From Dermatophilaceae bacterium (lineage in GTDB: Bacteria > Actinomycetota > Actinomycetes > Actinomycetales > Dermatophilaceae), in assembly GCA_035633255.1 (NCBI GenBank), contig DASQFD010000018.1:1-24000 (forward strand): a stretch of DNA of 24,000 nt, given 5' to 3'. Of the stretch, positions 136 through 19,102 are shown in pieces (the first letter of the stretch is position 1; every line of letters begins with the position of its first letter). The notes under the pieces were generated by a model. That model saw only the letters and a list, made by a program, of their open reading frames with translations. It was not told the origin of the DNA and made no database searches. The position numbers and the translations under genes were made by a program.

Positions 136-263
136 CCACACAGCATATCAGATCTTAACTGTTTTCCGATGACAATTCGCGAAGAGAAAGCCCTGATCAC
201 AGGGCTGGTCGGTCAGCTACTTCCGGAGGTCTGAGCCTGCTGACGTTCTTCTCCTCCACCGAG

Positions 264-758: not shown

Positions 759-846
759 CCCGGCGGCCCGTCGCCTGGCGCGGCGGGCGCCGAGGGCGCC
801 GCTGCTGGTCCTGGTCCCGGTCCGGGTCACCGGGGCGTGCTCGCCC

Positions 847-1695: not shown

Positions 1696-2029
1696 CGGCC
1701 ACCTCCAGTGCGGCGACGAGGAACTCCTCGCCGCGGACCACCCGCACGGCCCTGGACCCGCACGACCGGCACGCGACGACGAGCAGGTCGGTGACGCCGG
1801 TCGTGGTCCCGCACGCGGGGCAGGACAGGGTCACCGGCACGTGGTCGATCCGCAGGGCCGACCCGGCGAGCGGCGTCTCCGCGGTGACCACCTCCCAGCA
1901 CGCGACGAGTGTCTCGGGCACCACCTGGCGCAGCTGCCCCACCGTCAGCTCGACGCTCTCGACGACGCGGCCACCCCGCGCGCGGTCGACGACCTCGTAG
2001 ATCGAACTGCACAGCGCCAACTCGTGCAC
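1688..2029 (-). CDS. hypA: Hydrogenase nickel-insertion zinc protein HypA
   Basis: Canonical N-terminus (V/M)HELALCSSIY from a GTG at 2029, giving 113 aa. The ORF-track ATG at 2062 would add 11 atypical residues. Zinc CxxC pairs are CPACG and CRSCG. Confidence 0.88.
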   Translation of the reverse strand: MHELALCSSIYEVVDRARGGRVVESVELTVGQLRQVVPETLVACWEVVTAETPLAGSALRIDHVPVTLSCPACGTTTGVTDLLVVACRSCGSRAVRVVRGEEFLVAALEVADG

Positions 2030-2090
2030 GGGGCCACTCTGGCACGGCCGGGATGAGGACACACCGGCGCCGGCGTCCTACCGTGGGCCT

Positions 2091-4610: not shown

Positions 4611-4711
4611 CCGCGCGACGTGGTGCCCCGCCGACTCCGCCCGGGGTCGAGGTGATGCGCGGCGCGGCGCAGTAGGGTCGGTGACCTCGACGTCGGGCAG
4701 GAGGGGAGCGG

Positions 4712-5761: not shown

Positions 5762-5789
5762 AGCCGGCCCGACGGAAGGGAGGACGCCC

Positions 5790-6077
5790 TTGTGCCTCGG
5801 CATACCCGGCCAGGTCGTCGAGATGACCGACCCGGAGCAGCACCTCGCCACCGTCGACGTCTCCGGCGCCCGACGGGCCGTCAGCGTGCGGCTCCTCGCC
5901 GACGAGGGGGTGGCCGTCGGGGACTGGGTCCTCGTGCACGTGGGCTTCGCCATGGCGAGGATCGACGAGGACGAGGCCGCCGAGACCCTGCGCGCCCTGG
6001 AGCACCTGGGGCAGCTCTACCGGGACGAGGTCGACGCGTTCAGCGCCGCGGTGCCGGAACGGCATACCAGCGCATGA
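5790..6077 (+). CDS. hypC: Hydrogenase assembly chaperone HypC
   Basis: A TTG start at 5790 gives the canonical (M)CLGIPGQVVEM N-terminus, 95 aa. GGAAGGGAGGA RBS upstream. The stop overlaps the hypD ATG (ATGA). Confidence 0.88.
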   Translation: MCLGIPGQVVEMTDPEQHLATVDVSGARRAVSVRLLADEGVAVGDWVLVHVGFAMARIDEDEAAETLRALEHLGQLYRDEVDAFSAAVPERHTSA

Positions 6078-7198
6078 GGTTCGTCGACGAGTTCCGGGAC
6101 CCGGCGGCCGCGCGGGCGCTGGTGGCGGCCATCGAGGCCGTGCCGCTGCCCGGGCCGGTGGCGCTGATGGAGGTGTGCGGGGGGCACACCCACACGATCT
6201 ACCGGCACGGCCTGGAGCACCTGCTGCCCGACACCGTGGAGCTGGTGCACGGGCCCGGCTGCCCGGTGTGCGTCATCCCGACCGGGCGGGTGGACGACGC
6301 CATCTGGCTGGCCGAGCAGCCGGGCGTCGTCCTGACCACCTTCGCCGACATGATGCGGGTGCCCGGCTCGAGCGGCTCCCTCCTCGACGCCAAGGCGCGG
6401 GGCGCCGACGTCCGCTTCGTCTACTCACCGCTCGACGCGCTCCGCCTCGCCGCGCGCAGCCCGGACCGGCACGTCGTGTTCTTCGCCGTCGGCTTCGAGA
6501 CCACGGCCCCGTCCACGGCCGTGACGCTGCTGCAGGCCCGCGCCCTCGGGGTGGAGAACTTCTCGGTGTTCTCCAACCACGTGACGATCGGGCCGCCGCT
6601 GGAGGCCATCCTCGACGCGGCCGAGGTGCGGCTCGACGGCTTCCTCGGCCCCGGCCACGTCGCCACGGTCACCGGGCTCGACGTCTTCGAGCCGATCGTG
6701 CGGGAGCACCACGTCCCGCTCGTCGTCGCCGGCTTCGAGCCGCTCGACATCCTCTCCGCCGTCCACATGCTGCTCGTGCAGGTCGCCGAGGGGCGCGCGG
6801 AGGTCGGCAACCAGTACGGCCGCGTGGTGCGACGCGAGGGCAACCCGGAGGCACTGCGCCTGATGGCCCAGACGCTCGCGCTGAGGGACGCCTTCGAGTG
6901 GCGCGGCCTCGGCGACATCCCCCGCTCGGGCCTGAGGGTCCACCCCGACTTCGCGACGTGGGACACCGAGCGCCGCTTCGACGTGCCGGGCCTGCGGGTC
7001 GCCGACCACCGCGCGTGCCAGTGCGGGTCGGTGCTGCGCGGGGTGATCAAGCCGTGGGAGTGCAAGGTGTTCGGCAAGGGCTGCGCTCCCGAGCGTCCGC
7101 TGGGCACCTGCATGGTCTCCCCGGAGGGCGCGTGCGCGGCCTACTACACCTTCGGCCGGACGAGCAACGACGCCGCCGGCCTCCTGGCGCGTCGATGA
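6074..7198 (+). CDS. hypD: Hydrogenase maturation Fe-S protein HypD
   Basis: 374 aa from the ATG at 6074 (MRFVDEFRD). Motifs CGGHTH, GPGCPVCV, FETTAP and C-terminal cysteines. The longer ORF-track start at 5792 is an out-of-context extension across hypC. Confidence 0.94.
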   Translation: MRFVDEFRDPAAARALVAAIEAVPLPGPVALMEVCGGHTHTIYRHGLEHLLPDTVELVHGPGCPVCVIPTGRVDDAIWLAEQPGVVLTTFADMMRVPGSSGSLLDAKARGADVRFVYSPLDALRLAARSPDRHVVFFAVGFETTAPSTAVTLLQARALGVENFSVFSNHVTIGPPLEAILDAAEVRLDGFLGPGHVATVTGLDVFEPIVREHHVPLVVAGFEPLDILSAVHMLLVQVAEGRAEVGNQYGRVVRREGNPEALRLMAQTLALRDAFEWRGLGDIPRSGLRVHPDFATWDTERRFDVPGLRVADHRACQCGSVLRGVIKPWECKVFGKGCAPERPLGTCMVSPEGACAAYYTFGRTSNDAAGLLARR

Positions 7199-7291
7199 CG
7201 CCGTTCGTCGCAGTCGGAGGACCGCAGCCACACGTCACACCCCCGGTGGGGTGCGGGTTCGGGGCGCCGGGCGTAGCGTTCCCGGACATCG

Positions 7292-7309
7292 ACAGACGCG
7301 CCCTTCACC
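7292..7309 (+). terminator. Short perfect hairpin downstream of hypD (possible hyp/hox inter-operon terminator or attenuator)
   Basis: GCCCTTC-ACCC-GAAGGGC, a 7-bp perfect stem with a 4-nt loop, about 95 nt after the hypD stop and about 80 nt before hoxF. There is no T-tract. Confidence 0.3.
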
Positions 7310-7390
7310 CGAAGGGCTGACTCACCCGCCACCGGGCAGCGCAGCACCGGGCTGCCCCGTCGTGGCGCCAACGCGACGGAGGCCGTCGGT

Positions 7391-9202
7391 ATGGGCATCG
7401 ACGCGGCACGGCTCCTCGACCGCCACGGGCACGACCGCACGCGCCTTCTCGACATGCTGTGGGAGGTGCAGCGCGCCGAGGGCCACCTGCCCCAACCGGT
7501 CGTCGAGGAGCTCGCCGCGGGGCTCGGCACCACCGCCGGCGACATCCACGAGACGGCGTCGTTCTACCACTTCTTCCACGACGAGCCGGGCGGCCGGCAC
7601 CGGGTCTACCTCGCCGACACCGTAGTCGCCAAGATGCGCGGGTATGCCGACGTGCGCGCCGCCCTGGAGCGCGAGACCGGGGCGTGCTTCGGTGGCCCGC
7701 CCGACCCCACCGGGACCTTCTCGCTGCACGACACCCCGTGCATCGGCCTCTCCGACCAGGAGCCGGCGATGCTCGTCGACGAGGTCGTCTTCACGAGGCT
7801 CCGGCCGGGGAAGGTCGCCGACATCGTCGGCCAGCTGCGGGCCGGGCTCACCGCCGAGGAGGTGGCCAACCCGGTCGGGCTCCCTCGGGACGAGGTGGCC
7901 TACGTCGACAACCTCGTCGAGACCAACGTGCGGACCAAGGGGCCGGTCTTCTTCCGCTACCCCGCGGACTACCGCATGCTCCTGCGGGACTGCCTGGTCC
8001 TGACCCCCGAGCAGATCACCGAGCGGATCTCCGAGTCCGGCCTGCGGGGGCGGGGCGGCGCCGGCTTCTCCACGGGCCTGAAGTGGCAGCTGTGCCGGTC
8101 GGCATACGGGGACCGGAAGTACGTGATCTGCAACGCCGACGAGGGGGAGCCCGGCACCTTCAAGGACCGCGTCCTGCTCACCCGGTCGCCCAAGCAGGTC
8201 TTCACCGGCATGGTCATCGCCGCCTACGCGATCGGCGCCAGCGGGGGGCTGGTCTACCTGCGGGCCGAGTACGCCTACCTCCAGCCCTATCTGGAGCGGC
8301 AGCTGGAGGAGATGCGCGCGGACGGCCTGCTCGGCCACGACATCCTCGGGCGGGCGCCCTTCGACTTCGACATCCGCATCCAGCTCGGCGCCGGCGCCTA
8401 CGTCTGCGGTGAGGAGTCGGCGCTGATCGAGTCGTGCGAGGGCAAGCGGGGCACCCCTCGGCTCAAGCCGCCCTTCCCGGCCCAGCAGGGCTACCTCGGG
8501 CAGCCGACGTGCATCGACAACGTGGAGTCGTTCGGGACGATCACCCGGATCCTCGAGGAGGGGCCGGGATGGTTCCGGGCGATGGGCACGGCGGACTCGG
8601 CCGGGACCCGACTGATAAGCGTCGCCGGTGACGCCCGCAAGCCGGGGGTCTACGAGGTGGAGTGGGGGACCACGCTGGCGGAGGCGCTGGCCCTGGTCGG
8701 AGCGGAGGACGCGCGCGCCGTGCAGGTCGCCGGCCCGTCCGGGGAGTGCGTGTCGCCGGAGCTCGATGGCGAACGCCGCCTCGCGTTCGAGGACCTGAGC
8801 TGCAACGGGGCCTTCACCGTCTTCGGCCGCGACCGGGACCTGCTGCGGGTGGTCCGCGACTACGTCAAGTTCTTCGCCGACGAGTCGTGCGGCATCTGCG
8901 TGCCGTGCCGGGTCGGCAACACCGAGCTGCTGCACAAGGTGGACCTCTTCCTCGCCGGGCGGGCGAGCGAGCCCGACGTGGAGGACCTGCGGCGGTGGAG
9001 CGCGATCATCCGCGGCGCCAGCCGGTGCGGGCTGGGCGCGACGTCGCCCAAGCCGGTGCTCACCACGCTGTCGAGGTTCCCCGAGATCTACCGGGAGCGG
9101 ATGGCCGCCGGGGGCGGCCCGCTGCTGCCGGCATACGACCTGGCGGGCCAGCTGGCCGGCTACGACGCCGCGATCCGGGAGCTGGAGGGGGAGCTGCGAT
9201 GA
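7391..9202 (+). CDS. hoxF: NAD-reducing hydrogenase diaphorase subunit HoxF (NuoE-like N-terminus fused to a NuoF-like FMN/NAD module)
   Basis: 603 aa. NuoF motifs GLRGRGGAGFSTGLKW, CNADEGEPGTFKDR and ESCGICVPCRVG. In the N-terminal thioredoxin-like NuoE-type domain only one of the four usual 2Fe-2S cysteine positions is kept (VYLADTVVAKM, CIGLSD). GGAGG RBS. Confidence 0.9.
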   Translation: MGIDAARLLDRHGHDRTRLLDMLWEVQRAEGHLPQPVVEELAAGLGTTAGDIHETASFYHFFHDEPGGRHRVYLADTVVAKMRGYADVRAALERETGACFGGPPDPTGTFSLHDTPCIGLSDQEPAMLVDEVVFTRLRPGKVADIVGQLRAGLTAEEVANPVGLPRDEVAYVDNLVETNVRTKGPVFFRYPADYRMLLRDCLVLTPEQITERISESGLRGRGGAGFSTGLKWQLCRSAYGDRKYVICNADEGEPGTFKDRVLLTRSPKQVFTGMVIAAYAIGASGGLVYLRAEYAYLQPYLERQLEEMRADGLLGHDILGRAPFDFDIRIQLGAGAYVCGEESALIESCEGKRGTPRLKPPFPAQQGYLGQPTCIDNVESFGTITRILEEGPGWFRAMGTADSAGTRLISVAGDARKPGVYEVEWGTTLAEALALVGAEDARAVQVAGPSGECVSPELDGERRLAFEDLSCNGAFTVFGRDRDLLRVVRDYVKFFADESCGICVPCRVGNTELLHKVDLFLAGRASEPDVEDLRRWSAIIRGASRCGLGATSPKPVLTTLSRFPEIYRERMAAGGGPLLPAYDLAGQLAGYDAAIRELEGELR

Positions 9203-9903
9203 CCATCCAGATCAGCATCGACGGCGAGGTCGTCACGACGAGCGCCGGCAAGGCCGTCGTCGACGTCGCCGCCGCGCACGGCACCTACGTCCCGACGCTC
9301 TGCTACCACCCCGGGCACGCCTGCCTGGGCACCTGCCGCGTGTGCACGGTCCGGGTCAACGGCGCCATGGTCGCGTCCTGCACCCTGGAGGCGCGCGACG
9401 GCATGGTCGTGGAGGTGGACACCCCCGAGCTGCGGGACACCCGGCAGGCCCTGGTGGAGATGCTCTTCGTCGACGGCATCCACAACTGCCCCAGCTGCGA
9501 GAAGAGCGGCCGCTGCACCCTGCAGGCGCTGGGCATCGAGATGAGCCTGGAGAAGCCGCGCTTCCCGTACCGCTACCCCGCCCGGGAGGCCCAGCACGGC
9601 GCCGCGGAGCTGTGGCTGGAGCGCGACCGGTGCATCTTCTGCCAGCGGTGCGTGGAGTTCGTGCGCGACGCGGAGACCGGGCGCAAGGTCTTCAGCATCT
9701 ACGGGCGCGGGGAGAAGGCCCGGATCGAGATGGACGAGGACCTCGCCGACGCGATGACCCCCGAGCAGGTCGACGAGGCGGTGGCCCTGTGCCCCGTGGG
9801 GGCGATCCTGCACAAGGGGGTCGGCTACGACACACCGATCGGCAGGCGACGCTACGAGACCGTCTCGCTGAAGGACCGCGTTCTCGGGCGGAGGCCGTCA
9901 TGA
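9199..9903 (+). CDS. hoxU: NAD-reducing hydrogenase Fe-S subunit HoxU (NuoG N-terminal-like)
   Basis: 234 aa. 2Fe-2S ferredoxin-type N-terminus (CYHPGHACLGTCRVCTV...SC). HNCPSCEKSGRC, CIFCQRCVEF and CPVGA cluster motifs. ATGA overlap with hoxF. Confidence 0.88.
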   Translation: MTIQISIDGEVVTTSAGKAVVDVAAAHGTYVPTLCYHPGHACLGTCRVCTVRVNGAMVASCTLEARDGMVVEVDTPELRDTRQALVEMLFVDGIHNCPSCEKSGRCTLQALGIEMSLEKPRFPYRYPAREAQHGAAELWLERDRCIFCQRCVEFVRDAETGRKVFSIYGRGEKARIEMDEDLADAMTPEQVDEAVALCPVGAILHKGVGYDTPIGRRRYETVSLKDRVLGRRPS

Positions 9904-10565
9904 CCGAACCGGCTCACCTCTCCGGGCACTCCTCCTCCTCCCCCTCCTCCTCGGGCGAGGAGGCCTCGCACGACCTGCCCCGCACCGCCGTCGCCCCGGG
10001 GACCGCGGCCGCCCGCGACGGCAAGATCAAGATGGCGACGATCTCGCTCGCCGGGTGCTGGGGCTGCAACCTCAGCCTCCTCGACCTCGACGAGCGCATC
10101 CTGCCGCTGCTGGACAAGGTGACGATCACCCGCAGCTCGTTCACCGACATCAAGCGCATCACCGAGCGGTGCACCGTCGGCTTCGTCGAGGGGGGCGTCG
10201 CCAACGAGGAGAACATCGAGACCCTCGAGCACTTCCGCGAGAACTGCGACCTGCTCATCGAGGTCGGCGCCTGTGCCATCTGGGGCGGGATCCCCTCGCT
10301 GCGCAACGCGGTCGGGCTCACGGCCTGCCTGCGGGAGGCCTACGTGGACAGCCCGACCCGCCCGGCCGGGTCGCTGCCGGTCATCCCGCGCCACGAGGAC
10401 ATCCCGGTCCTGACCACGCAGGTCAGGCCCTGTCACGAGGTCGTCCACATGGACTACTTCATCACCGGCTGCCCACCCGACGGCAACCAGATCTTCTCGG
10501 TGCTCGACGACCTGGCGAACGGACGCCCGGTCAACCTGCCCACCGCGATCACGCGGTACGACTGA
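9900..10565 (+). CDS. hoxY: [NiFe] hydrogenase small subunit HoxY, with a roughly 44-aa Ser-rich N-terminal extension
   Basis: The core begins KIKMATISLAGCWGCNLSLLD and includes GACAIWGG and GCPP motifs. An ATGA overlap with the hoxU stop and high GC3 through 9900-10030 favour the upstream ATG. An alternative start is the internal Met just before ATISLAG. Confidence 0.82.
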   Translation: MTEPAHLSGHSSSSPSSSGEEASHDLPRTAVAPGTAAARDGKIKMATISLAGCWGCNLSLLDLDERILPLLDKVTITRSSFTDIKRITERCTVGFVEGGVANEENIETLEHFRENCDLLIEVGACAIWGGIPSLRNAVGLTACLREAYVDSPTRPAGSLPVIPRHEDIPVLTTQVRPCHEVVHMDYFITGCPPDGNQIFSVLDDLANGRPVNLPTAITRYD

Positions 10566-10604
10566 CGTGGTCGCCCCCCGTCCGACGGACCTCCCGGAGG
10601 AGCC

Positions 10605-12074
10605 ATGAGCCGCAAGCTCGTCATCGACCCCGTCACCCGCATCGAGGGTCACGGGAAGGTCGTCGTGCACCTCGACGACGACAACCAGGTGTCCGACGCC
10701 CGGCTGCACGTCGTGGAGTTCCGGGGCTACGAGCGCTTCGTCCAGGGACACCCGTACTGGGAGGCGCCGGTCCTGCTGCAGCGGATCTGCGGGATCTGCT
10801 TCGTCAGCCACCACCTCGCGGGCGCCAAGGCGATCGACGACGTGGTCGGGGCCGGCGTGAACGCGCCGACCGGGATCCCCGTCGCCGCGGAGAAGATGCG
10901 CCGGCTGGGCCACTACGCGCAGATGCTGCAGTCGCACGCCACGGCGTACTTCTACCTCGTGGTCCCGGAGATGCTCTTCGGGATGGACGCGCCGCCCGAG
11001 CAGCGCAACGTCCTCGGTCTCATCGAGGCCGACCCGGGGCTGGTCACCCGGGTGGTGATGCTGCGCAAGTGGGGCCAGGAGATCATCCAGACCGTCTTCG
11101 GCAAGCGGATGCACGGGATCTCCGCCATCCCGGGTGGGGTGCAGAAGGGCCTGACCATCGCGGAGCGCGACCGCTTCCTCAACGGCGACGAGGGCATACC
11201 GTCCATGGCGCAGGTCATGGAGTACGCGCAGGACGGGCTGAGGGTCTGGCACGACTTCCACGAGAAGCACCGCGCGGAGGTGGACTCCTTCGCCGTCGTG
11301 CCCGCCCTGTCGATGTCGCTGGTCGGCGACGACGGCAACGTCGACTACTACCACGGCCGGCTCCGGGTGACCGACGAGCACAAGCGGGTGGTCGACGACT
11401 TCGACTACCACGACTACCTCGACCACTTCTCCGAAGGCGTGGAGCCGTGGAGCTACATGAAGTTCCCGTTCCTGAAGAAGCTGGGGCGCGAGCAGGGCTC
11501 GGTGCGGGTCGGCACCCTGGCCCGGATGAACGTCACCGAGACGCTGCCGACCAAGTTCGCCGCCGACGCGCTCGACCGCTTCCACGGGTACACCCACGGC
11601 GAGGCGAACCTCGCGACGCTGCACTCGAACTGGGCGCGCGCCATCGAGATCATCCACGCCGCCGAGCTCATCGAGGAGCTGCTGCGCGACCCCGACCTGC
11701 AGAGCGAGGACCTGGTCACCGACCCGGGCCCGAGCGGGTGGACCGGTGAGGGGGTCGGCGTGGTCGAGGCACCCCGCGGGACGCTGCTGCACCACTACCG
11801 CGCCGACGCGGACGGGGCGATGACCTTCGCCAACCTCATCGTGGCCACGACCCAGAACAACGAGGTGCTCAACCGGACGGTGCGGGCGGTCGCCGAGGAG
11901 CAGCTCACCGGGAAGGTCGAGGTCACCGAGGGGATGATGAACGCCATCGAGGTAGGGCTGCGGGCCTACGACCCGTGCCTGAGCTGCGCCACGCACGCCC
12001 TGGGCCAGATGCCGCTCGTCGTCACCGTGGTGGACGCCGCGGGGGACGTCGTCGCCGAGCGGGTGCGCTCGTGA
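10605..12074 (+). CDS. hoxH: [NiFe] hydrogenase large subunit HoxH (group 3d type)
   Basis: 489 aa. N-terminal ligand motif RICGICFVSHHLAG. C-terminal DPCLSCATH followed by a 25-aa extension (ALGQMPLVV...), the substrate for the maturation protease. GGAGGAG RBS. Confidence 0.94.
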   Translation: MSRKLVIDPVTRIEGHGKVVVHLDDDNQVSDARLHVVEFRGYERFVQGHPYWEAPVLLQRICGICFVSHHLAGAKAIDDVVGAGVNAPTGIPVAAEKMRRLGHYAQMLQSHATAYFYLVVPEMLFGMDAPPEQRNVLGLIEADPGLVTRVVMLRKWGQEIIQTVFGKRMHGISAIPGGVQKGLTIAERDRFLNGDEGIPSMAQVMEYAQDGLRVWHDFHEKHRAEVDSFAVVPALSMSLVGDDGNVDYYHGRLRVTDEHKRVVDDFDYHDYLDHFSEGVEPWSYMKFPFLKKLGREQGSVRVGTLARMNVTETLPTKFAADALDRFHGYTHGEANLATLHSNWARAIEIIHAAELIEELLRDPDLQSEDLVTDPGPSGWTGEGVGVVEAPRGTLLHHYRADADGAMTFANLIVATTQNNEVLNRTVRAVAEEQLTGKVEVTEGMMNAIEVGLRAYDPCLSCATHALGQMPLVVTVVDAAGDVVAERVRS

Positions 12075-12625
12075 GTGCGCCCGCGCCCGCGCTCGGGACC
12101 CGGCTCTCCGGCTACGACGACCCGACGTGCCTGGTGGTCGGCGTGGGCAACGTCGGGCGCGAGGACGACGGGCTCGGCTGGGCGTTCGTCGACCGGCTCG
12201 AGGAGACCGGCGCCTGCGCTCGTGCCGAGGTGGTGCAGCGCTACCAGCTGCTGCTCGAGGACGCGGACCTGTTCTCCCGCTTCGAGCGGGTGCTCGTGGT
12301 GGACGCGACCCGGGACGCCGGCGTGACGGCATACGGGGTGCAGGTCCCGGAGCCACGGCTGGACGTGACGTTCACCTCGCACGCGATGTCGGTGCCGTGC
12401 GTGCTGGCCACGACGGCGACCTGCTTCGGCCGGGTGCCGCAGGTGGAGGTGCTGGCGATCCGCGGCTACTCCTGGGACCTGTGCACCGGGCTGACCGATC
12501 AGGCCGCGGCCAACCTGGACGCGGCCCTGGACGCCCTGGGGTGTCCGCCCCCCGGCACCGGGCGGCCCGGCCGGCCCGGCCGGACTGACCGTGACGTACC
12601 CGCTCTCGGCGCGTGTGGAGGATGA
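12071..12625 (+). CDS. hoxW: Hydrogenase maturation endopeptidase HoxW
   Basis: A GTG at 12071 overlaps the hoxH stop (GTGA). VVGVGNVGREDDGLGW motif, later VVDA and a conserved His region. 184 aa. Confidence 0.85.
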   Translation: MSAPAPALGTRLSGYDDPTCLVVGVGNVGREDDGLGWAFVDRLEETGACARAEVVQRYQLLLEDADLFSRFERVLVVDATRDAGVTAYGVQVPEPRLDVTFTSHAMSVPCVLATTATCFGRVPQVEVLAIRGYSWDLCTGLTDQAAANLDAALDALGCPPPGTGRPGRPGRTDRDVPALGACGG

Positions 12626-12627
12626 GG

Positions 12628-13128
12628 ATGGACGAGAAGACGTTCGACCGGGTCGCGACGACCATCTACGAGGCCCCCCTGGGCACCTACATCGGGCGGG
12701 AGGGCGCGGAGGTGCTCGCCGAGTTCGCCGGCGAGGAGGTGACCCTGACCGACAAGGAGTTCCTCTTCCACCAGGGCGAGTTCGCGCGGACGTTCTACAT
12801 CGTCACCGGCGGGCGGCTCGCCTTCGTGCGCGAGGCGACGGCCAGCAAGCCCGAGGTCATCATCCACGTCCTGGAGAAGGGCGACCTCTGCGGTGAGATG
12901 AGCTTCATCGACGGTGGTGAGTACACCGTGTCGTGCTGTGCGCTGGGCCCGGCAGCGGTCCTGTCCTTCCGCGTCGGTGACCTCTCGCCGCTGGTGGAGA
13001 AGCACCCACGCGTCCTCTATGACTTCATGCGGGCGGTCATCGCCCGGGCCCACTCGACGAGCGCGTCGCTGAGCCGGCAGCGCCAGGAGCTCGCCGACTT
13101 CATCGCCACCGGAGGCAAGCGCGGCTGA
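12628..13128 (+). CDS. hoxI: Cyclic-nucleotide-binding-domain protein in the HoxI position of the SH operon
   Basis: 166 aa from the ATG at 12628; a GGAGGA lies 5 nt upstream, and GTG 12613 or ATG 12622 are alternatives. cNMP-binding fold signatures are FLFHQGEFARTFYIVTGGRL and GDLCGEMSF, with no HTH. It sits directly after hoxW, as hoxI does in the R. eutropha hoxFUYHWI operon. Confidence 0.75.
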   Translation: MDEKTFDRVATTIYEAPLGTYIGREGAEVLAEFAGEEVTLTDKEFLFHQGEFARTFYIVTGGRLAFVREATASKPEVIIHVLEKGDLCGEMSFIDGGEYTVSCCALGPAAVLSFRVGDLSPLVEKHPRVLYDFMRAVIARAHSTSASLSRQRQELADFIATGGKRG

Positions 13129-13158
13129 CGCGCGCCACCGGCATGCCACCATCGTGGC

Positions 13159-14133
13159 GTGGAGGACATGTCGGTCGGTGAGATGGCGGGACGCCTCGGT
13201 GTCACGCCGTCCACCGTGCGGATGTGGGGCACGCGGTACGGACTGCACGCCTCGGCGCGCAGTGCCGGGGGGCATCGCCGGTACACCGCCGCGGACGTCG
13301 ACCGCCTGCAGCAGATGCAGGAGCTGGTCAACAGGGGGGTCGACCCGGCCGAGGCGGCGGCCCGCGCGCTCGCCGCGGGCGGCGCCGCGGGTCCCGGGGG
13401 CGCCGCGGGTCCCGAGGGGACCACGGGTCCCGGGCGGTCCGCGGGCCCCGGGCGACCGGGCGGGCCGGGCGGTTCGGTGCTCGCCGTCCCCGGCGCCGAC
13501 TGCCGCGTCCGCGGGCTGGCCAGGGCCGCCAGCCGCCTCCAGGACGGTGAGGTCACCGCCATCGTGAGCGCCGCCCTGCGCGAAGAAGGCGCCGCCGCCA
13601 CCTGGACCGGGCTGGTGGTGCCGGTGCTCGTCGCCGCCGGGGAGCACTGGGAGCGGGGCGGCACCGGCATCGAGGTCGAGCACCTGCTGACCTCCGCCGT
13701 GTCGGTCGCCTTCACCGGCTACGTGTCCGGCCTCCCCGAAATTGCACAAGATCGGCCCGTGGTGCTGGCGGGGGGGCCGAACGAGGACCACGTCCTCACG
13801 CTCCACGCGGTCCGCTCGGCGCTGGCCGAGCGAGGCGTGCCGGTCCGGTTCCTCGGGCCGCGGACGCCGCTCGGGGCGCTCACGGCGACGGCCCGCCTGA
13901 CCAGGACGCCGGCGGTGCTGATCTGGGCCAGCCTGGCGGATTCCGAGGCGGCAGACGGGCTGGCGGAGCTGCGGGCGGCTCACCGGCGGTTGCTGCTGCT
14001 CGTCGCGGGACCCGGCTGGACCGGCCTGGACACCGCGCCGGCCACGGTCTGCACCAGCCTGGACGACGCGGTCGCCCGGTTGGGCGGGGCCTGGGGGCGG
14101 CGGCTCGGCGGCGCTGCCGAACGTGACGAATGA
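13159..14133 (+). CDS. MerR-family HTH plus B12-binding-domain regulator (CarH/LitR-type candidate light sensor)
   Basis: N-terminal MerR HTH (SVGEMAGRLGVTPSTVRMWGTRYGL...RRYTAADV). Gly/Pro repeat linker. Helical bundle with an exact W-x9-EH motif (HWERGGTGIEVEHLL). Rossmann-like B12 domain with E-D-H (VVLAGGPNEDHVLTLHAV), LGPRTPL and LLLVAGPGW. The start may instead be the ATG at 13168. Confidence 0.85.
   Translation: MEDMSVGEMAGRLGVTPSTVRMWGTRYGLHASARSAGGHRRYTAADVDRLQQMQELVNRGVDPAEAAARALAAGGAAGPGGAAGPEGTTGPGRSAGPGRPGGPGGSVLAVPGADCRVRGLARAASRLQDGEVTAIVSAALREEGAAATWTGLVVPVLVAAGEHWERGGTGIEVEHLLTSAVSVAFTGYVSGLPEIAQDRPVVLAGGPNEDHVLTLHAVRSALAERGVPVRFLGPRTPLGALTATARLTRTPAVLIWASLADSEAADGLAELRAAHRRLLLLVAGPGWTGLDTAPATVCTSLDDAVARLGGAWGRRLGGAAERDE
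13381..13470 (+). repeat. 18-bp tandem repeat (about 5 units) encoding a (G-A-A-G-P-G)-like linker in the regulator
   Basis: The units are GGCGCCGCGGGTCCCGGG / GGCGCCGCGGGTCCCGAG / GGGACCACGGGTCCCGGG / CGGTCCGCGGGCCCCGGG / CGACCGGGCGGGCCGGGC. They encode GAAGPG GAAGPE GTTGPG RSAGPG RPGGPG. Confidence 0.85.
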
Positions 14134-14153
14134 AACTTGCACAAGTCTTGACC
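14134..14153 (+). promoter_or_regulatory. Candidate operator plus -35 element of the rhodopsin promoter
   Basis: An AT-rich island sits right after the regulator stop. The inverted repeat ACTTG-CA-CAAGT (14135-14146) abuts TTGACC (14148-14153). The 11-mer AACTTGCACAA fits the nAnnTnnACAn repeat pattern that I recall for CarH operators. I could not find a convincing -10 hexamer. Confidence 0.4.
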
Positions 14154-14254
14154 TGACCCCAGCCGGAGGCGTCTACTGGGAGGGCTTCCGCACCCTCGGG
14201 AGCGCTCTCGACGGCCGCCATGCACGCATCGGCGCCTCAAGGCCAGGAGTCCGC

Positions 14255-15193
14255 ATGAACGACGACCAGTCGGCAGTCAACATCCCCTCGCTCACGGCCG
14301 GCCAGTTCGACATCGTCTACAACCTGTTGTCGCTGACCATCGCCTCGATGCTCTTCACCGCCCTCTACCTCGTGCTCTCCCAGCGCCGGGTCGCGCCTCG
14401 CTACCGGAACGCGGTCGTCGTCTCCGCCATCGTGTGTGGCATCGCCGCGTACCACTACTTCCGGATCTTCCAGAACTTCAAGGAGAGCTACCCACCGGGG
14501 GAGGGGGTCACGTCCGACCACCAGCTCTCGAACGTCGTCTTCAACGAGGCCTACCGCTATGTCGACTGGCTGCTCACCGTGCCACTGCTTCTCGTCGAGA
14601 CCGTCGCGGTGATGGCCCTGGCTCGTGCCGCCCAGCGCTCCCTGCTGGTCAAGCTCATCCCGGCGGCCGTCGCGATGATCCTGCTCGGCTACCCCGGTGA
14701 GGTCGCGACGACCAACACCGCACGGCTGATCTGGGGCTTCCTCGCGACCCTGCCCTTCATCTACATCGTCTACGTGCTCTTCGTGGAGCTGTCGCGGTCC
14801 CTGGACCGGCAGCCTCCCGAGGTCCGGCGGGTCGCCAAGCTGCTGCCGGTCACCCTCGTCGCGCTCTGGTCCGTCTACCCGGTCGCCTACCTCTTCCCGG
14901 TCTTCGGCGGGGACTTCTTCGGGGGCGCGGACGGGTTCGTCCTCCGCCAGGCCGGCTACAGCATCGCCGACATCCTCGCCAAGGCCGCGTTCGGGCTGCT
15001 GATCTTCTACGTCGCCCGGGTCCAGAGCCGACTGGACGACACGGCCTACGACGACGACCACTCGGTGACCGGGCACACCTCCCCGGCCACGAGCAACGGC
15101 TCCAGCGGTGACGCCTCCATCGGGAGCGCTGCCACCGGTGTGCCGGTCGGCGAGGTCACCGGCGCGCAGGCGTCCGCGGTGGGCCGGTCATGA
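14255..15193 (+). CDS. Microbial (type-1) rhodopsin, proteorhodopsin/xanthorhodopsin-like DTE proton-pump type
   Basis: 312 aa from the ATG at 14255, with an AGGAG RBS. There are seven hydrophobic helices. Helix C reads RYVDWLLTVPLLLVE (D, T, E at the BR 85/89/96-equivalent positions, with Leu at the PR-105 tuning position). Helix B has the AAYHYF His, helix F has LWSVYPVAY, and helix G has SIADILAKAAFG (D-x3-K Schiff-base lysine). The C-terminal tail is about 50 aa and rich in Ser/Gly/Asp. Confidence 0.92.
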   Translation: MNDDQSAVNIPSLTAGQFDIVYNLLSLTIASMLFTALYLVLSQRRVAPRYRNAVVVSAIVCGIAAYHYFRIFQNFKESYPPGEGVTSDHQLSNVVFNEAYRYVDWLLTVPLLLVETVAVMALARAAQRSLLVKLIPAAVAMILLGYPGEVATTNTARLIWGFLATLPFIYIVYVLFVELSRSLDRQPPEVRRVAKLLPVTLVALWSVYPVAYLFPVFGGDFFGGADGFVLRQAGYSIADILAKAAFGLLIFYVARVQSRLDDTAYDDDHSVTGHTSPATSNGSSGDASIGSAATGVPVGEVTGAQASAVGRS

Positions 15194-15678
15194 GTGCCGT
15201 GTCCTCGCAGCTGCCACCGCTCGACCTGCCCGCCGGCTCCCCCGTCGGCCTCGAGGACGGCGGAGGCTCGCCGCAGAAGCCCTTCTACGACCTGACGGTC
15301 CGACTGCTGGGCCACGTCCGGGACCACGACCTGCCGGCGCTGGCCGCCCTGTGCGACGACGACTTCGGGATCGTCGAGATCACCACCACGGGTGGATCGC
15401 TGGTCATCCGCGACCGGGCGGGCTGGGAGGCCTGGTTCGGCGGGCTGTTCGCCCAGCTCGACGCCATGCAGGCACGCACGTGGTCGGAGGTCACCGGTTA
15501 CGAGGCGGTGGTGAGCGGCGACATGGGCTACAGCGTCGTCGACTTCCACCAGATGCTGGTGACCGAGGAGGAGTCGCTGCGCTTCACCGTGATCGCCACC
15601 ATCATCTGGAAGCGCGTCGACGGCGGCTGGAGGGAGTCCCGCTACCACAGCTCCCTCCTCGGGGTGGAGCCCGTCTGA
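15190..15678 (+). CDS. NTF2-like (SnoaL/DUF4440-type) protein, translationally coupled to the rhodopsin
   Basis: 162 aa. The ATG at 15190 overlaps the rhodopsin TGA (ATGA). After a roughly 30-aa disordered N-terminus the pattern is typical of NTF2-fold proteins (LCDDDFGIVE...GWEAWFGGLF...VSGDMGYSVVDF...TIIWKRVDGGWRESRYHSS). Confidence 0.75.
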   Translation: MSAVSSQLPPLDLPAGSPVGLEDGGGSPQKPFYDLTVRLLGHVRDHDLPALAALCDDDFGIVEITTTGGSLVIRDRAGWEAWFGGLFAQLDAMQARTWSEVTGYEAVVSGDMGYSVVDFHQMLVTEEESLRFTVIATIIWKRVDGGWRESRYHSSLLGVEPV

Positions 15679-15717
15679 CCCACGCCTGACGTCGCTCTGA
15701 CCTCGGTCTGACCGGGA
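15674..15717 (+). repeat. Four tandem 11-bp direct repeats with core (T/C)CTGAC(C/G)
   Basis: The units are TCTGACCCACG (15674), CCTGACGTCGC (15685), TCTGACCTCGG (15696) and TCTGACCGGGA (15707), spaced exactly 11 bp apart. Unit 1 contains the stop codon of the NTF2-like gene. Unit 4 runs into the left arm of the terminator stem. Confidence 0.85.
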
Positions 15718-15750
15718 GGTCGGGCCCGGACAACCCGGGTCCGACCTCCC
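15714..15750 (+). terminator. Strong GC-rich hairpin ending the hyp/hox/rhodopsin co-directional array
   Basis: GGGAGGTCGGGCCCGG - ACAA - CCCGGGTCCGACCTCCC, a stem of about 16 bp with one mismatch, 36 nt after the last stop codon. There is no U-tract, which is common in high-GC actinobacteria. Confidence 0.65.
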
Positions 15751-16025
15751 GTTCCGCGCTCGCCCCTGGCGACTGAGCCGTGGCCGTGCCCCGTTCGGTC
15801 GTCGTAGCACGGGACGGGCCGGAAAGGGAGATTAGAGTCGGGTTGACCCGATCTGACTTCCCGGTCGGCGACGGGCGAAGGTAGTGGAACGCAGAGACGC
15901 GCCAAGCACCTTGTTGCGGCGCGAGAGCGATGCCGACGACTGCGTGGCACTGCTCATGGTCCAGCAAGGGGCCCTCGCGTCCGGGCCGATCCGGCCATCC
16001 GATCCACATCTCTAGGGGTATTTCC

Positions 16026-16312
16026 TTGTCCTTCTCCACCATCGACGACACCACCACCAACGACCGTTCGGTCCGCACCCACGGTGACGAGACGCGCCCG
16101 GCGCGCAAGACCACCGAGCTCATCGCCTACGTGGTGGCCGTGCTCGCGGTGGCCCTGACCGCACTGGTCGTGGGCGACGAGGCGACAACACCGCCGACCC
16201 GTTCAGCGCCGAGCAGGCCATGCGCTACATCGCCTACCTCACCATCGGCTACATGGTCGCGCGCGGCCTGGCCAAGTCCGGCAGCCGCGGTCGGGTCAGC
16301 GACGACGCCTGA
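16026..16312 (+). pseudogene. Small two-helix membrane protein gene with an apparent 1-nt frameshift
   Basis: A TTG at 16026 gives (M)SFSTIDDTTTNDRSVRTHGDETRPARKTTELIAYVVAVLAVALTALVVGDEA. From about 16184 the high-GC3 coding signal moves to another frame: DNTADPFSAEQAMRYIAYLTIGYMVARGLAKSGSRGRVSDDA, with a stop at 16310-16312. The total length is 287 nt (3n-1). The switch lies in the direct repeat GGCGACGAGGCGAC. Confidence 0.55.
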
Positions 16313-16543
16313 GCCTCGGCTCACCACCGGAGGGATCTCCGGTAGGACAGCGACAGCGCCCCCCTCCCCTTCGGGAGTGGGGGCGCCGTGCTGTCCGGAA
16401 CGGGCGGCCGGCGACCCACGACGCGGGGGGCCGACACCGCGGACCGCGGGGTATGCCGTGCCGTGCCCTTCCGTTTGCGCGCCGGGTCCAGCGGTGGTTC
16501 GGTGGGGTCCATCCCCGGTCCGACCCGCGAGGAAGTGGCGTCC

Positions 16544-19102
16544 ATGAGGACACGGCACACGGCATACCCGCTCAGGACGCTCGGGGGGCTGGCCCTCACG
16601 GCGGTGACCGCGGCCGCGTTGGTGGCCGCGCCGACGGCGGGTGCCCAGCCGTCCGCGGTCCCGCGAGGCGGCGTCGACGCGCAGGGGACGGCCGGGTGCG
16701 ACCCCTTCTCGGAGCCGGCGCTCGACGCCCGGGTGCCCACGGCTCGGGACGTCCTGGGACTCGACCTCGGTGACCGGGACGTCACGACGGCCGAGTCGGA
16801 CGCGTACCTGCAGGCGCTCGCGGCCGCGAGCCCCATGGTGACCGACGGTGTGCTCGCGACCTCGGTGCGCGGGCGGCCCCTGCGGTATGCCGTGGTGGGC
16901 CAGCAGAAGTGGGTCACCGAGGCCGGGCTGGCCCGGATCGGGCGCGATGTCGGGCGGCTGCGGGACGCCCGCACCCCGGAGGCGCAGGCCCGGCAGATCA
17001 TCCGGTCCATGCCGTCGATCCTGTGGGTGGCCGGGAACGTCCACGGGGGCGAGGAGAGCGGCACCGACGCCTCGCTGCGGGTGCTCTACGAGCTGGCCGC
17101 GAGGACCGACTGCGCGGCGCAGGAGATCCTCGACGACGCGATCGTCGTCGTGCTGCCGACGCAGAACCCCGACGGTCGCGAGGCCGACACCCGGCGCAAC
17201 GCGTACGGCTTCGACATGAACCGCGACTGGTTCGCGCGCACGCAGCCGGAGACCGACGGGAAGCTGGAGCTGCTGCGGCGGCTCCCCCCGCAGGTCTTCG
17301 TCGACGCGCACGAGATGGGGCGAGCGACGTTCTTCTTCCCGCCGAACGCCGACCCCGTCTACCACGACATCGGCGAGACCCCCCTGAGCTGGATCTACGA
17401 CCGGATCGGGCCGTCGATCCAGTCCTCGTTCGGCCGGTTCTCGATCCCCTACTTCAACGGAGACGTCTACGACCTCTTCTACATGGGGTACGGCGACACC
17501 GTCCCGACGACGGGCTTCAACGCGGCCGGGATGACGTTCGAGAAGGCGAACGGCGACCCGACGCCGCAGCGGGTGCGGGAGCAGTACGTCGCGATCTGGA
17601 GCACCCTCAGCACGATGGGTGCCAAGGACGACGCGCTGCTGACCGAGTGGCGGGCCGAGCACCGGACGGCATACCAGCAGGGCGTGCAGGGCAAGCTCGA
17701 GCCCAACCAGCTCTACTGGGAGGGCGCGGCCGTCGAGAACCAGGTGCCGGACGCCCCGGTCAGGCACTACTTCCTCGAGACCTCCGACCCGGCGAAGGCC
17801 GACGAGGCGCAGCGCGTCGCGCGACGGCTGCAGCGCATGGACGTCGACGTCTTCCGGCTGGTGCGGCCGCTGACGGTGCCGGACTACACGCCCTATGGAC
17901 GGCCCAGCGGGACGCGGACGCTGCCGGTCGGCACGTTGTGGGTGCCGATGGCGCAGGGGCAGAAGCACTGGGTGCAGGCGATGCTGAACGAGGACACCTA
18001 CGTGCCGTTCCCGTACTTCTACGACGTGACGGCGTGGAGCGCGCCGCTGCTGGAGAACGTGCCGGGCGGGCGCTCCGGCGCCGAGCTGCGGCCGCAGGCG
18101 GTGGCGCTGGCCCAGCAGGCCGAGCCGGACGTCACGATGCAGGGGGACGCGGCGCCGCGGGTCGCGGTGTGGCAGATCTCCGCCACGTCGGGCGGATCGA
18201 TCGAGTCGGCGGGCTGGCTGCGCTGGTGGCTCGACAAGCGGGCGGGGCTGGAGCACGCGGACGTCACGGCGGGGCGGATCGCCGGCGGGGCGCTGGCCGA
18301 CGTGGACGTGCTGGTGGTGCCGAGCGGGTCCGACTCGACGGCCGACACCGCCCTGGGCGCGGCGGGCCGGGCCGCCCTCACCTCGTGGGTGCGGGACGGC
18401 GGGCGGTTGGTCATGCTCCGCGACAGCTCCCGCCTGGCCACCCGGCTCGGCCTGACGTCGGCGACCTTCGCCGACGCCACGTCGGACATCCCCGGGTCGC
18501 TCGTGCGGGTCGAGGTCGACCCGGCCAGCCCCCTCGCCGCCGGGGTGGGTGACACCGCCTACGCGATGTACGAGTACGACTTCGTGTGGACGGCGCCGGA
18601 GGCGTCCTCGCCGGTGCGCTACCCCGCGGCGGGGGACCCCGACTGGTTCGTCTCCGGCTTCGCGGCCGGCGAGGAGCAGCTGAAGGGGACGTCCGCCGTC
18701 GTCGACGAGAAGCTGGGTCAGGGCCGGGTCGTGCTGTTCGGCTTCGACCCGAACTACCGCGCGTTCACCAACGGCACGGCGCAGCTGCTGCGCAACGCCA
18801 TCACCGGCCCGGCACCGTCCGACGCGCCGACGGCGCGGGTGACGGCACCCGGGGCGGCCACGGCGGCGTCGGTGGAGGCGTCCGGCCGGATGGTGCTGAG
18901 CGTGCGCCCGGGCGCGGCGGGCCGGGTCGAGGCGCTGCTGCGGGCCCGCGGCGCCCAGTCTGACGTCGTGCGGTCGCCCGGCGTGGTGAGCTACCGGGTG
19001 GACCTCGGTGGCAGGACCGCGGACGAGCACCCGTGGGCCTCGGACCTCGCCGCCGAGGTGGCGGCGCTGGGCAGCGCGGTGGTGGCGGTCCGCCTGCCGT
19101 AG
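16544..19102 (+). CDS. Secreted M14-family zinc metallocarboxypeptidase with a large C-terminal extension
   Basis: 852 aa from the ATG at 16544. Signal peptide MRTRHTAYPLRTLGGLALTAVTAAALVAAPTAGAQP. Zinc and substrate motifs HGGEESG, NPDGRE, GFDMNRDW and DAHEMG. The C-terminal region resembles amidotransferase-like domains (VDVLVVPSGSD...GGRLVML). Confidence 0.85.
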   Translation: MRTRHTAYPLRTLGGLALTAVTAAALVAAPTAGAQPSAVPRGGVDAQGTAGCDPFSEPALDARVPTARDVLGLDLGDRDVTTAESDAYLQALAAASPMVTDGVLATSVRGRPLRYAVVGQQKWVTEAGLARIGRDVGRLRDARTPEAQARQIIRSMPSILWVAGNVHGGEESGTDASLRVLYELAARTDCAAQEILDDAIVVVLPTQNPDGREADTRRNAYGFDMNRDWFARTQPETDGKLELLRRLPPQVFVDAHEMGRATFFFPPNADPVYHDIGETPLSWIYDRIGPSIQSSFGRFSIPYFNGDVYDLFYMGYGDTVPTTGFNAAGMTFEKANGDPTPQRVREQYVAIWSTLSTMGAKDDALLTEWRAEHRTAYQQGVQGKLEPNQLYWEGAAVENQVPDAPVRHYFLETSDPAKADEAQRVARRLQRMDVDVFRLVRPLTVPDYTPYGRPSGTRTLPVGTLWVPMAQGQKHWVQAMLNEDTYVPFPYFYDVTAWSAPLLENVPGGRSGAELRPQAVALAQQAEPDVTMQGDAAPRVAVWQISATSGGSIESAGWLRWWLDKRAGLEHADVTAGRIAGGALADVDVLVVPSGSDSTADTALGAAGRAALTSWVRDGGRLVMLRDSSRLATRLGLTSATFADATSDIPGSLVRVEVDPASPLAAGVGDTAYAMYEYDFVWTAPEASSPVRYPAAGDPDWFVSGFAAGEEQLKGTSAVVDEKLGQGRVVLFGFDPNYRAFTNGTAQLLRNAITGPAPSDAPTARVTAPGAATAASVEASGRMVLSVRPGAAGRVEALLRARGAQSDVVRSPGVVSYRVDLGGRTADEHPWASDLAAEVAALGSAVVAVRLP

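Follow-up and report, generated by a model that had tools for sequence, protein, structure and literature searches.

A CarH/LitR-like regulator gene, a proton-pump rhodopsin gene and an NTF2-fold gene form a conserved, putatively light-controlled cassette in Actinomycetota

This work concerns a 24,000-nucleotide stretch of DNA from a Dermatophilaceae bacterium (assembly GCA_035633255.1, contig DASQFD010000018.1, positions 1 to 24,000 of the forward strand), hereafter called the window, whose G+C content is about 72%. Three genes follow one another on its + strand: the gene of a MerR/B12-type regulator (13159-14133), that of a rhodopsin with a DTE motif (14255-15193) and that of a protein with an NTF2 fold (15190-15678). 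A preliminary description, made from the letters of the sequence, had presented them as a light module in which a light sensor regulates a light-driven pump. We followed it up with profile and structure searches and with a comparison of related loci, and we consider it likely that the three genes constitute a light-controlled rhodopsin cassette, in which a CarH/LitR-like repressor is released by light and the NTF2-fold protein takes part in chromophore supply.

The regulator gene reads from a GTG start at 13159 to position 14133 and encodes 324 aa, comprising a MerR winged helix-turn-helix (HTH), a long Gly/Pro-rich linker, a four-helix bundle with a W-x9-EH motif and a putative, divergent Rossmann-type B12 domain with an E-D-H motif. 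In Pfam, MerR_1 matched residues 4-66 (1.7e-16) and B12-binding_2 residues 119-185, and a phmmer search of the PDB aligned the protein to CarH of Thermus (3whp, 5c8d), the CarH DNA-binding domain included. In this alignment 'geHWerGgtGievEH' stands against 'geaWhrGeiGvaeEH', with an exact W-x9-EH that corresponds to W131, E141 and H142 of CarH, and 'pnEdH' stands against 'pgErH', the histidine of which corresponds to H177, the lower axial histidine of CarH. The W-x9-EH residues and the axial histidine are invariant among 23 homologues. In the Rossmann domain GxxxP is mostly kept, and the glycine of GxxH is an asparagine in the window protein. The regulator, which shares the diagnostic residues of the family, appears to be CarH/LitR-like, and these conserved residues suggest that it depends on light and B12. 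Some of these regulators are named 'light-induced transcriptional regulator' in the automatic annotation of JGI. An 18-nt tandem repeat of 4.3 copies (13376-13454) encodes the Gly/Pro/Ala-rich linker and makes the window regulator longer than its relatives (297-319 aa). Its exact sequence is absent from a collection of 15 billion proteins, in which both neighbour proteins are present. The rhodopsin and the NTF2 protein have entries at 100% identity from a 28-kb contig of a Dermatophilaceae metagenome-assembled genome.

The rhodopsin gene follows after a gap of 121 nt (14134-14254) and most likely starts, judging from an AGGAG ribosome-binding site at 14245-14249, with the ATG at 14255. Its product of 312 aa matched Bac_rhodopsin in Pfam (1.8e-39) and, in the PDB, 9hfk (1e-78), 6nwd, 9wfa, 3ddl and 7ytb at the top; the closest solved relatives are 9hfk, Gloeobacter rhodopsin (GR), psXR, xanthorhodopsin (XR) and Kin4B8. 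The motif string is HDTEGDK, standing for the helix-B histidine, D/T/E, the antenna-site glycine and the lysine of D-x3-K. Thus, RYVDWLLTVPLLLVE and AAYHYFR align to D121/T125/E132 and the histidine of GR, SIADILAK aligns to the same segment in 9hfk and GR, and LIWGFLA, aligned to IIWGTVS of GR, carries the fenestration glycine of the carotenoid antenna (G156 in XR, G178 in GR). A Ser/Gly-rich tail of 45 aa forms the C-terminus. By its residues the xanthorhodopsin-like protein is predicted to pump protons outwards, as do xanthorhodopsin, Gloeobacter rhodopsin and actinorhodopsin.

The stop codon of the rhodopsin gene and the start codon of the NTF2 gene overlap in an ATGA (15190-15193), through which the translation of the two is probably coupled. 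The third gene encodes a protein of 162 aa, which exceeded the Pfam cut-offs of DUF4440 (34.2 versus 25.2) and SnoaL_3 (32.7 versus 22). Its AlphaFold2 (AF2) model, with a mean pLDDT of 82.9 and a core above 90, adopts the NTF2 cone, and a Foldseek search with this model gave 526 PDB matches at E <= 1e-3, the listed top 50 of which all have the NTF2 fold; a sequence search of the PDB with the same protein gave nothing significant. The predicted operon ends at a hairpin (15713-15751, + strand) with a 17-bp G+C-rich stem and no T-tract. A consensus scan for T-tract terminators gave none, and the hairpin was confirmed through folding instead (z = -4.9 versus shuffles). All of the features for which the preliminary description had named these genes were recovered, namely the MerR HTH with an exact W-x9-EH, the E-x-H motif of the B12 domain, the position of the regulator 121 nt upstream of the rhodopsin, the full set of pump residues (D/T/E, helix-B His, D-x3-K), the overlap of the rhodopsin stop with the ATG of an NTF2-fold gene, and the strong hairpin behind the latter.

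That description had also proposed a survey of rhodopsin neighbourhoods in Actinomycetota and had reckoned with a chance neighbourhood should the adjacency be missing from related genomes. A search with the rhodopsin in one genome of each species gave 31 loci, to which metagenome loci and individual protein look-ups were added. The regulator lies directly upstream and on the same strand in 17 of the 31 scanned loci, and a decayed remnant of it is found in locus L013. In total we obtained 29 distinct regulator-rhodopsin loci, all actinobacterial, 18 of which have the three-gene form with NTF2. Across the 29, identity drops to 43-47% for the regulator and to about 61-70% for the rhodopsin, and the flanking genes are unrelated: a hydrogenase in the window, urease/ABC genes in L118, RecBCD in L119 and a divergent crtE-crtI-crtI operon in L125. 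This recurrence in unrelated surroundings indicates that the adjacency is not due to chance, and conservation amid differing flanks characterizes the cassette as a mobile, self-contained unit. Cultured carriers are Modestobacter sp. VKM Ac-2983, Kineosporia sp. R_H_3, Dermatophilaceae Soc4.6 and Nakamurella spp. GG22 and UYEF19; the rhodopsins of Kineococcus, some Frankiales, Gracilimonas and Roseiflexaceae occur without the regulator. The preliminary description had not recognised the arrangement as a described operon type. In the searchable literature, which lacks most subscription journals and in which a survey of Geodermatophilaceae rhodopsins was consulted, we found neither rhodopsin genes described as being under CarH/LitR control nor an NTF2/SnoaL partner of rhodopsins. 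The arrangement is widespread and not a one-off.

Three side observations were made in the surveyed loci. In a Myxococcales metagenome-assembled genome (MAG; L025, 4877-9102) a divergent MerR-family regulator with no recognisable B12 domain lies 150-200 bp from a rhodopsin-crtY-blh operon, which may represent an independent attachment of a MerR-type regulator to a rhodopsin photosystem. In Modestobacter sp. VKM Ac-2983 (L122, 7911-8333 and 10259-10912) an AraC regulator is found about 1 kb 3' of the regulator-rhodopsin-Blh cassette, followed by a SnoaL_2 gene that is not a member of the NTF2 family of the window and, after it, by the gene of a second, distant rhodopsin. Finally, the motif CGTTGCGCAAGGGAATCCGT occurs at L001 12464, L004 9480, L005 9625, L007 9476, L008 9528, L009 9846 and L024 10294, in most of these about 3.5 kb 3' of the cassette. 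It was judged unrelated to the module: in L118, on the same contig as L005, it lies between the genes of an AsnC-type regulator and an arginase, and it is probably the AsnC-type regulator's own site.

Alignment of the spacers between regulator and rhodopsin genes revealed one outstanding conserved element, which is also the most conserved non-coding element of the locus. This predicted operator, with the consensus (G)AAACTTGCACAAGTT, is present upstream of the rhodopsin in all regulator-containing loci. In the window it is the 14-bp near-palindrome AACTTGCACAAGTC (14134-14147), the first base of which is the next after the regulator stop codon. A near-palindrome of the form AACTTGnnCAAGTT precedes each regulator-linked rhodopsin and touches a -35-like hexamer, in the window TTGACC (14148-14153, + strand). 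The two directly adjoin in the window and overlap by 2 bases in the relatives, the 3' end of the operator running into TTGAC in the NTF2 clade and into TTGCnC in other clades. The preliminary description had pointed to 14134-14153 as the region to which the regulator should bind, and operator and hexamer fill exactly this interval. The lineage variants CCTGCACGAG, CTTGTGCAA, CTTGTTCAAG and GTTGTACAA all keep the dyad. The operator core, TGCACA or TGTACA, is the TnnACA element of CarH/LitR sites; TnnACA is the element of the CarH direct repeats, and class II LitRs have TGTACA half-sites (PMC9304148, PMC9758184). The characterised CarH operator consists of 3-4 tandem 11-bp direct repeats nnnnTnnACAn that overlap the promoter (PMC9304148). 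Such tandem repeats were considered for the rhodopsin promoter and are absent from it, as it contains a single TGCACA, and the next TnnAC lies 9-10 bp off, not 11. Located 18 nt past the -35-like hexamer, TCTACT (14172-14177, + strand) is a putative -10-like element, at the position of which the relatives have GGCGTAnAnC at a fixed distance of 18 nt (19 aligned sequences). In L013 the regulator is reduced to a remnant of 22 codons (MSVGEVAARLG..., ~5800-5870), and operator, rhodopsin and blh are kept; this locus looks like a natural regulator-deleted variant, in which expression should be constitutive.

In the 5' untranslated region (UTR) of the rhodopsin gene (14178-14254) two hairpin blocks, CGCCGAnnnnTCGGTG and then GCGGCAnnnnTGCCGC, lie directly 5' of the ribosome-binding site and are conserved in the alignment of L001-L024. 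The first (14178-14209, + strand) shows compensatory changes among the relatives at 3 of its 6 predicted pairs. Rfam offered no credible family for this UTR, either in a scan of the window and eight loci at gathering threshold or in an E-value scan of 13900-16400. The pair of hairpins could be an mRNA-stabilising or regulatory leader.

With up to two mismatches, the palindrome AACTTGNNCAAGTT has exactly two matches in the 24 kb, at 13739 and 14134, versus 0.01 expected. The former, AAATTGCACAAGAT (13739-13752), is a predicted second operator copy within the coding sequence of the regulator, where it codes for the loop joining the helical bundle and the Rossmann domain. The pattern GAAnyTGCACrAG is kept in 22 of 23 regulator genes while the encoded peptide differs (EIAQD, KVAQD, ELAQA, EPARE and others). 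No other stretch of four codons in the gene is as conserved in its third positions as this site (0.924), and its conserved third bases are A/T/A/A in genes with a third-position G+C content (GC3) of 0.72-0.93, in which codons ending in A or T are rare. The two sites co-vary: where the promoter has CACGAG, the internal copy reads CACGAG or CACGAA (L012, L015, L016). They lie 390-402 bp apart in the ten loci with both exact copies, and about 395 bp apart in the window. Each locus examined for the number of sites has two of them. L018 has no internal copy, and its second one stands immediately 5' of the regulator gene. In L121, L124 and L125, of which the upstream regions were searched, a copy lies upstream of the regulator as well. 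In L125 that copy falls within the promoter region of the divergent crt genes, a link between the family and the classical CarH targets. Most loci share the conserved block GTGCCATCATCGGnnCGTGGCGGACATG upstream of the regulator, with CATCAT 6 nt before the GTG; in the window the hexamer is CACCAT (13147-13152, + strand), also 6 nt 5' of the GTG, and is a putative -10-like element of the regulator promoter. As this block stands alone upstream of most regulators, it suggests that the regulator mRNA is leaderless and made from a constitutive promoter.

In the 29 regulator loci the rhodopsin is followed by Blh/BCD at 10, by an RPE65-family carotenoid oxygenase at one (Nakamurella sp. UYEF19) and by NTF2 at 18, the last group being the window's closest relatives and including cultured Nakamurella sp. 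GG22. A hidden Markov model of Blh located this gene directly beside the rhodopsin in most fetched loci without NTF2, with the exceptions of L030, L031 and L124 (RPE65 gene instead). The third genes are mutually exclusive: NTF2 and Blh never stand together at one locus among the 125 fetched loci and the window, and no crt, blh or RPE65 gene was found near any NTF2 locus. Two of the three occupants of the slot are the two known, mutually unrelated families of retinal-forming enzymes. The soluble 162-aa NTF2 protein has no Pfam match that would indicate homology to either (PF15461, PF03055).

The NTF2 family itself is well delimited, with about 40 invariant positions, an identity of 55-65% between members from Actinomycetota and Bacteroidota, and the invariant motifs CDDDFGI, RDRAGW, TWSEIT, IIWK and RYHSS. 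Among 1.84 billion proteins its profile matched only 109 cluster representatives, of which no more than 8 reached E <= 1e-30, and none of the 109 is fused to a rhodopsin. A rhodopsin adjoins the gene in 57 of 80 metagenome loci seeded with NTF2, and in all of the three Bacteroidota arrangements inspected (six loci, L032-L037). As a rule the rhodopsin gene comes first and NTF2 follows, with an overlap or a gap below 110 nt. The rhodopsins in question fall into several families: actinobacterial xanthorhodopsin-like proteins, other xanthorhodopsin-like proteins (42-56% identity), a DTE group that is about 30% identical and includes Bacteroidota examples, and sodium-pump types with an NDQ motif. 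A distant member of the family, P0243 (256 aa), has two N-terminal transmembrane helices, which would fit a function at the membrane surface. Because the NTF2 gene occupies the slot held by Blh or RPE65 in the sister cassettes, its product probably has a part in providing the pump with chromophore or in loading it. The preliminary description had left the third gene as an accessory of uncertain role. Since the usual third gene is that of the retinal synthase Blh, the NTF2 protein becomes the most interesting part of the module, and it is the element that could prove new in kind.

For the cassette as a whole we propose the following mechanism. In the dark the regulator with adenosyl-B12 (AdoB12) would oligomerise, as CarH/LitR proteins do, and on the promoter dyad the oligomer would occlude the -35 element and block initiation. 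It would also occupy the second dyad, ~395 bp upstream in the regulator's own coding sequence, and there cooperate with the promoter site via a DNA loop closed by the B12-dependent oligomer, act as a roadblock, or both. The presence of two sites, together with a CATCAT block as the only element upstream of most regulators, is what suggests a loop and/or a roadblock for the internal site. A roadblock would stop read-through from the unregulated leaderless promoter of the regulator, and with either arrangement the regulator would be autoregulated too. UV to green light would then cleave the Co-C bond by photolysis, the oligomer would break up and both sites would be vacated, so that a bicistronic rhodopsin-NTF2 mRNA ending at the 15713-15751 hairpin would be made. 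The pump would then require retinal, which the co-expressed third gene would supply in the sister cassettes.

Two more far-reaching ideas are put forward tentatively, as possibilities in which we have limited confidence. The NTF2 protein may be a third, non-homologous solution to retinal supply that replaced Blh and spread by horizontal gene transfer. It might derive retinal from carotenoids or apocarotenals by the cofactor-free chemistry typical of NTF2 enzymes, or else capture and load it, and it would have travelled between Actinomycetota and Bacteroidota in company with rhodopsins that pump H+ and Na+. Separately, the regulator with an intragenic operator may represent a new architecture.

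Several results weigh against the light-controlled cassette as proposed. The Rossmann domain of the window regulator gave no match to the Pfam model PF02310 (B12-binding), which its relatives do match, and the protein scored 81 bits with the NCBIfam CarH equivalog NF052513, below the cut-off of 400. As the promoter has a single palindrome and CarH tetramers bind tandem repeats (PMC9304148), stoichiometry and binding mode may differ. A consensus scan found no canonical sigma-70 promoter, and the -10-like TCTACT is not a canonical TAnnnT. The 24-kb window contains no carotenoid, retinal or cobalamin genes for the supply of chromophore and cofactor. As to the NTF2 protein, its Foldseek matches are generic NTF2 enzymes and hub domains only. 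A 4-His iron site as in Blh or carotenoid cleavage oxygenases is not evident, and a single histidine is invariant, for which reasons a true retinal-forming activity is regarded as a possibility only. Moreover, 24 NTF2 loci, mostly with short flanks, show no rhodopsin open reading frame (ORF), which is truly absent from the six to eight of them with sufficient flank on both sides; genomes with NTF2 beside NDQ sodium pumps may well carry blh elsewhere; and the swap from Blh to NTF2 in Actinomycetota may be a single evolutionary event.

The divergence from PF02310 and the low CarH score would also suit a regulator that is independent of B12 or senses its availability, like Myxococcus CarA and class II-V LitRs, and that responds to a partner protein, redox or cobalamin supply instead of being a photoreceptor. 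LitR classes without B12 photochemistry exist (PMC9758184), and the palindrome resembles the inverted repeats of the Myxococcus CarA operator, unlike the direct repeats of CarH (PMC9304148). We nevertheless find this explanation unlikely, as W-x9-EH together with the axial histidine is specific to AdoB12 photochemistry and invariant in the 23 homologues, as the relatives do match PF02310, and as the controlled genes are of use in light only. An even smaller probability is given to activation of the classical MerR type, in which the regulator would remodel a suboptimal promoter. The MerR-family HTH, the 18-nt spacer and the poor -10 would agree with it, but the dyad of MerR activators is centred in the 19-20-nt spacer between -35 and -10, whereas here it lies upstream of the -35 and abuts it, with a second site 395 bp off. 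Furthermore, L013 has lost the regulator and yet kept the rhodopsin-blh genes and their promoter, and all characterised CarH/LitR proteins are repressors (PMC9304148, PMC9758184). That the adjacency arose by chance or hitch-hiking, the real targets of the regulator lying elsewhere, for example among carotenoid genes, is in our view highly improbable: classical CarH/LitR proteins do control crt genes and the L125 regulator is divergent from a crt operon with its own operator copy, but the pair recurs at 29 loci with differing flanks, the operator is in the rhodopsin promoter at all 29, and both operator matches of the 24-kb window fall inside the module.

It is conceivable, though we are inclined to doubt it, that the NTF2 protein is unconnected with retinal supply and is a carrier or loader of a carotenoid antenna, a soluble signal or partner protein of the rhodopsin on the model of the Anabaena sensory rhodopsin transducer, or an unrelated light-stress enzyme that is co-expressed. 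All linked rhodopsins have the fenestration glycine needed for antenna binding, and the orange carotenoid protein binds carotenoid in an NTF2-like domain at its C-terminus. However, an enrichment of the glycine in NTF2-linked rhodopsins was rejected, since it is equally present in rhodopsins without NTF2; it does not discriminate and was dropped as evidence. The orange carotenoid protein domain, for its part, is absent from the top 50 fold matches. The extreme conservation of the NTF2 family across rhodopsin families would fit a common ligand as well as a conserved interface, one distant member is membrane-anchored, and some members adjoin NDQ sodium pumps, which normally depend on a blh located elsewhere. 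On the other side, no fusion of rhodopsin and NTF2 was found among the 109 family representatives, and the only other occupants of the slot are two retinal-forming enzymes unrelated to each other.

Among known systems, the closest to the regulator are CarH (Thermus thermophilus, Myxococcus xanthus, Bacillus megaterium) and class I LitR (Streptomyces), AdoB12 photoreceptor repressors with which it shares the MerR HTH, the W-x9-EH bundle and, in what is probably a Rossmann domain, the axial histidine. The operator likewise touches the -35 and contains TnnACA, and the relative L125 has a site at a crt promoter. Unlike in those systems, the predicted target is an operon of a rhodopsin and a chromophore gene and not carotenogenesis, there being no crt genes in the window. 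A single 14-bp near-palindrome with a distant copy, usually in the regulator gene, takes the place of the 3-4 tandem 11-bp repeats of CarH, the cassette comes without a LitS-type sigma factor, and the regulator has a much longer linker and lies far below the CarH equivalog cut-off. The rhodopsin resembles xanthorhodopsin, Gloeobacter rhodopsin, Kin4B8 and actinorhodopsin in its DTE, helix-B His, D-x3-K and fenestration Gly, and differs from them in its long Ser/Gly-rich C-terminal tail, in the dedicated photoreceptor regulator 5' of it and in having NTF2 where relatives have blh. In proteorhodopsin clusters (rhodopsin and blh, with or without crtEIBY) a pump is also co-transcribed with a chromophore gene, and the sister cassettes with the order regulator-rhodopsin-Blh are similar, but in the window a non-homologous soluble NTF2-fold protein stands in place of Blh; we know of no dedicated light-sensing regulator in those clusters.

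The bop regulon of the archaeon Halobacterium comprises the bat regulator (GAF/PAS and HTH domains), the bop opsin and the retinal gene brp, and has no B12 chromophore. Here too, a dedicated sensor-regulator lies beside the genes for opsin and retinal and co-controls both, but Bat is unrelated to the window regulator and the gene order is different. In the sensory rhodopsin operon of Anabaena the soluble transducer ASRT, an all-beta protein, is the partner of the rhodopsin; like the NTF2 protein it is small, soluble, encoded directly 3' of the rhodopsin and co-transcribed with it, but here the fold is NTF2 and the rhodopsins have pump motifs (DTE, NDQ). As for the fold, SnoaL, scytalone dehydratase, BaiE, LinA, the CaMKII hub and the C-terminal domain of the orange carotenoid protein share the alpha+beta cone (Foldseek E ~1e-7, TM 0.6-0.8). 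These NTF2-like enzymes and binders are 9-21% identical to the window protein, whose family is sharply isolated with its own invariant motifs, and to our knowledge no linkage to rhodopsins has been reported for them.

The remainder of the window encodes hyp genes, an NAD-coupled NiFe hydrogenase, a cyclic-nucleotide (cNMP)-binding protein, an M14 peptidase, RNase J and a LuxR-type protein. The region 159-12625, which adjoins the phototrophy cassette, encodes a soluble NAD-coupled [NiFe] hydrogenase, with hypB-like, hypF, hypE and hypD genes, a NuoF-like diaphorase subunit and the NiFe small and large subunits; it also contains an ORF, without a Pfam match, that may encode a maturation protease. 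The cNMP-binding protein (12613-13128, + strand, 171 aa) consists of the CRP-like binding domain only, with no HTH, and its gene ends 30 nt 5' of the regulator gene. In Thermus, an activator of the CRP family, LdrP, goes together with LitR, and the cNMP gene was considered as part of the module; it was rejected, since it is found in none of the related loci, and its pairing with the regulator is probably coincidental. Downstream of the cassette, a gene for a two-helix membrane protein (16020-16312, + strand) seems to be split by a frameshift near 16180-16200, its N-terminal part lying in the frame of 15930-16547 and its C-terminal 'MRYIAYLTIGYMVARGLAKSG...' part in a different one, which reflects either an assembly error of the MAG or a pseudogene.

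Light-induced transcription of rhodopsin genes has repeatedly been observed, and little is known of how bacteria adjust rhodopsin expression to the light. A B12 photoreceptor acting on the promoter of a pump, as predicted for the cassette, is a concrete candidate for such a mechanism, and one that can be tested directly, since cultured Actinomycetota (Modestobacter, Kineosporia, Nakamurella, Dermatophilaceae) carry the cassette. The cassette would widen the CarH/LitR regulon from photoprotection by carotenoids to phototrophy, and might serve in practice as a compact, self-contained, light-switched expression module for high-G+C hosts. A CarH-like regulator with an intragenic operator would, if confirmed, bring a new operator architecture to B12 photoreceptors, acting via a loop or a roadblock, with one site hidden in the reading frame of the regulator and maintained through selection on synonymous codons. 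It has long been a puzzle that some rhodopsin-bearing bacteria without blh and diox1 have functional pigment (PMC7734400). The slot shared by Blh, the RPE65-family oxygenase and NTF2 makes the NTF2 family, which is tiny, extremely conserved and linked to rhodopsins in at least two phyla, a candidate route of retinal supply in blh-less bacteria and, if the NTF2 protein is indeed a retinal supplier, would provide a candidate gene for the functional rhodopsins of bacteria that have neither blh nor diox1.

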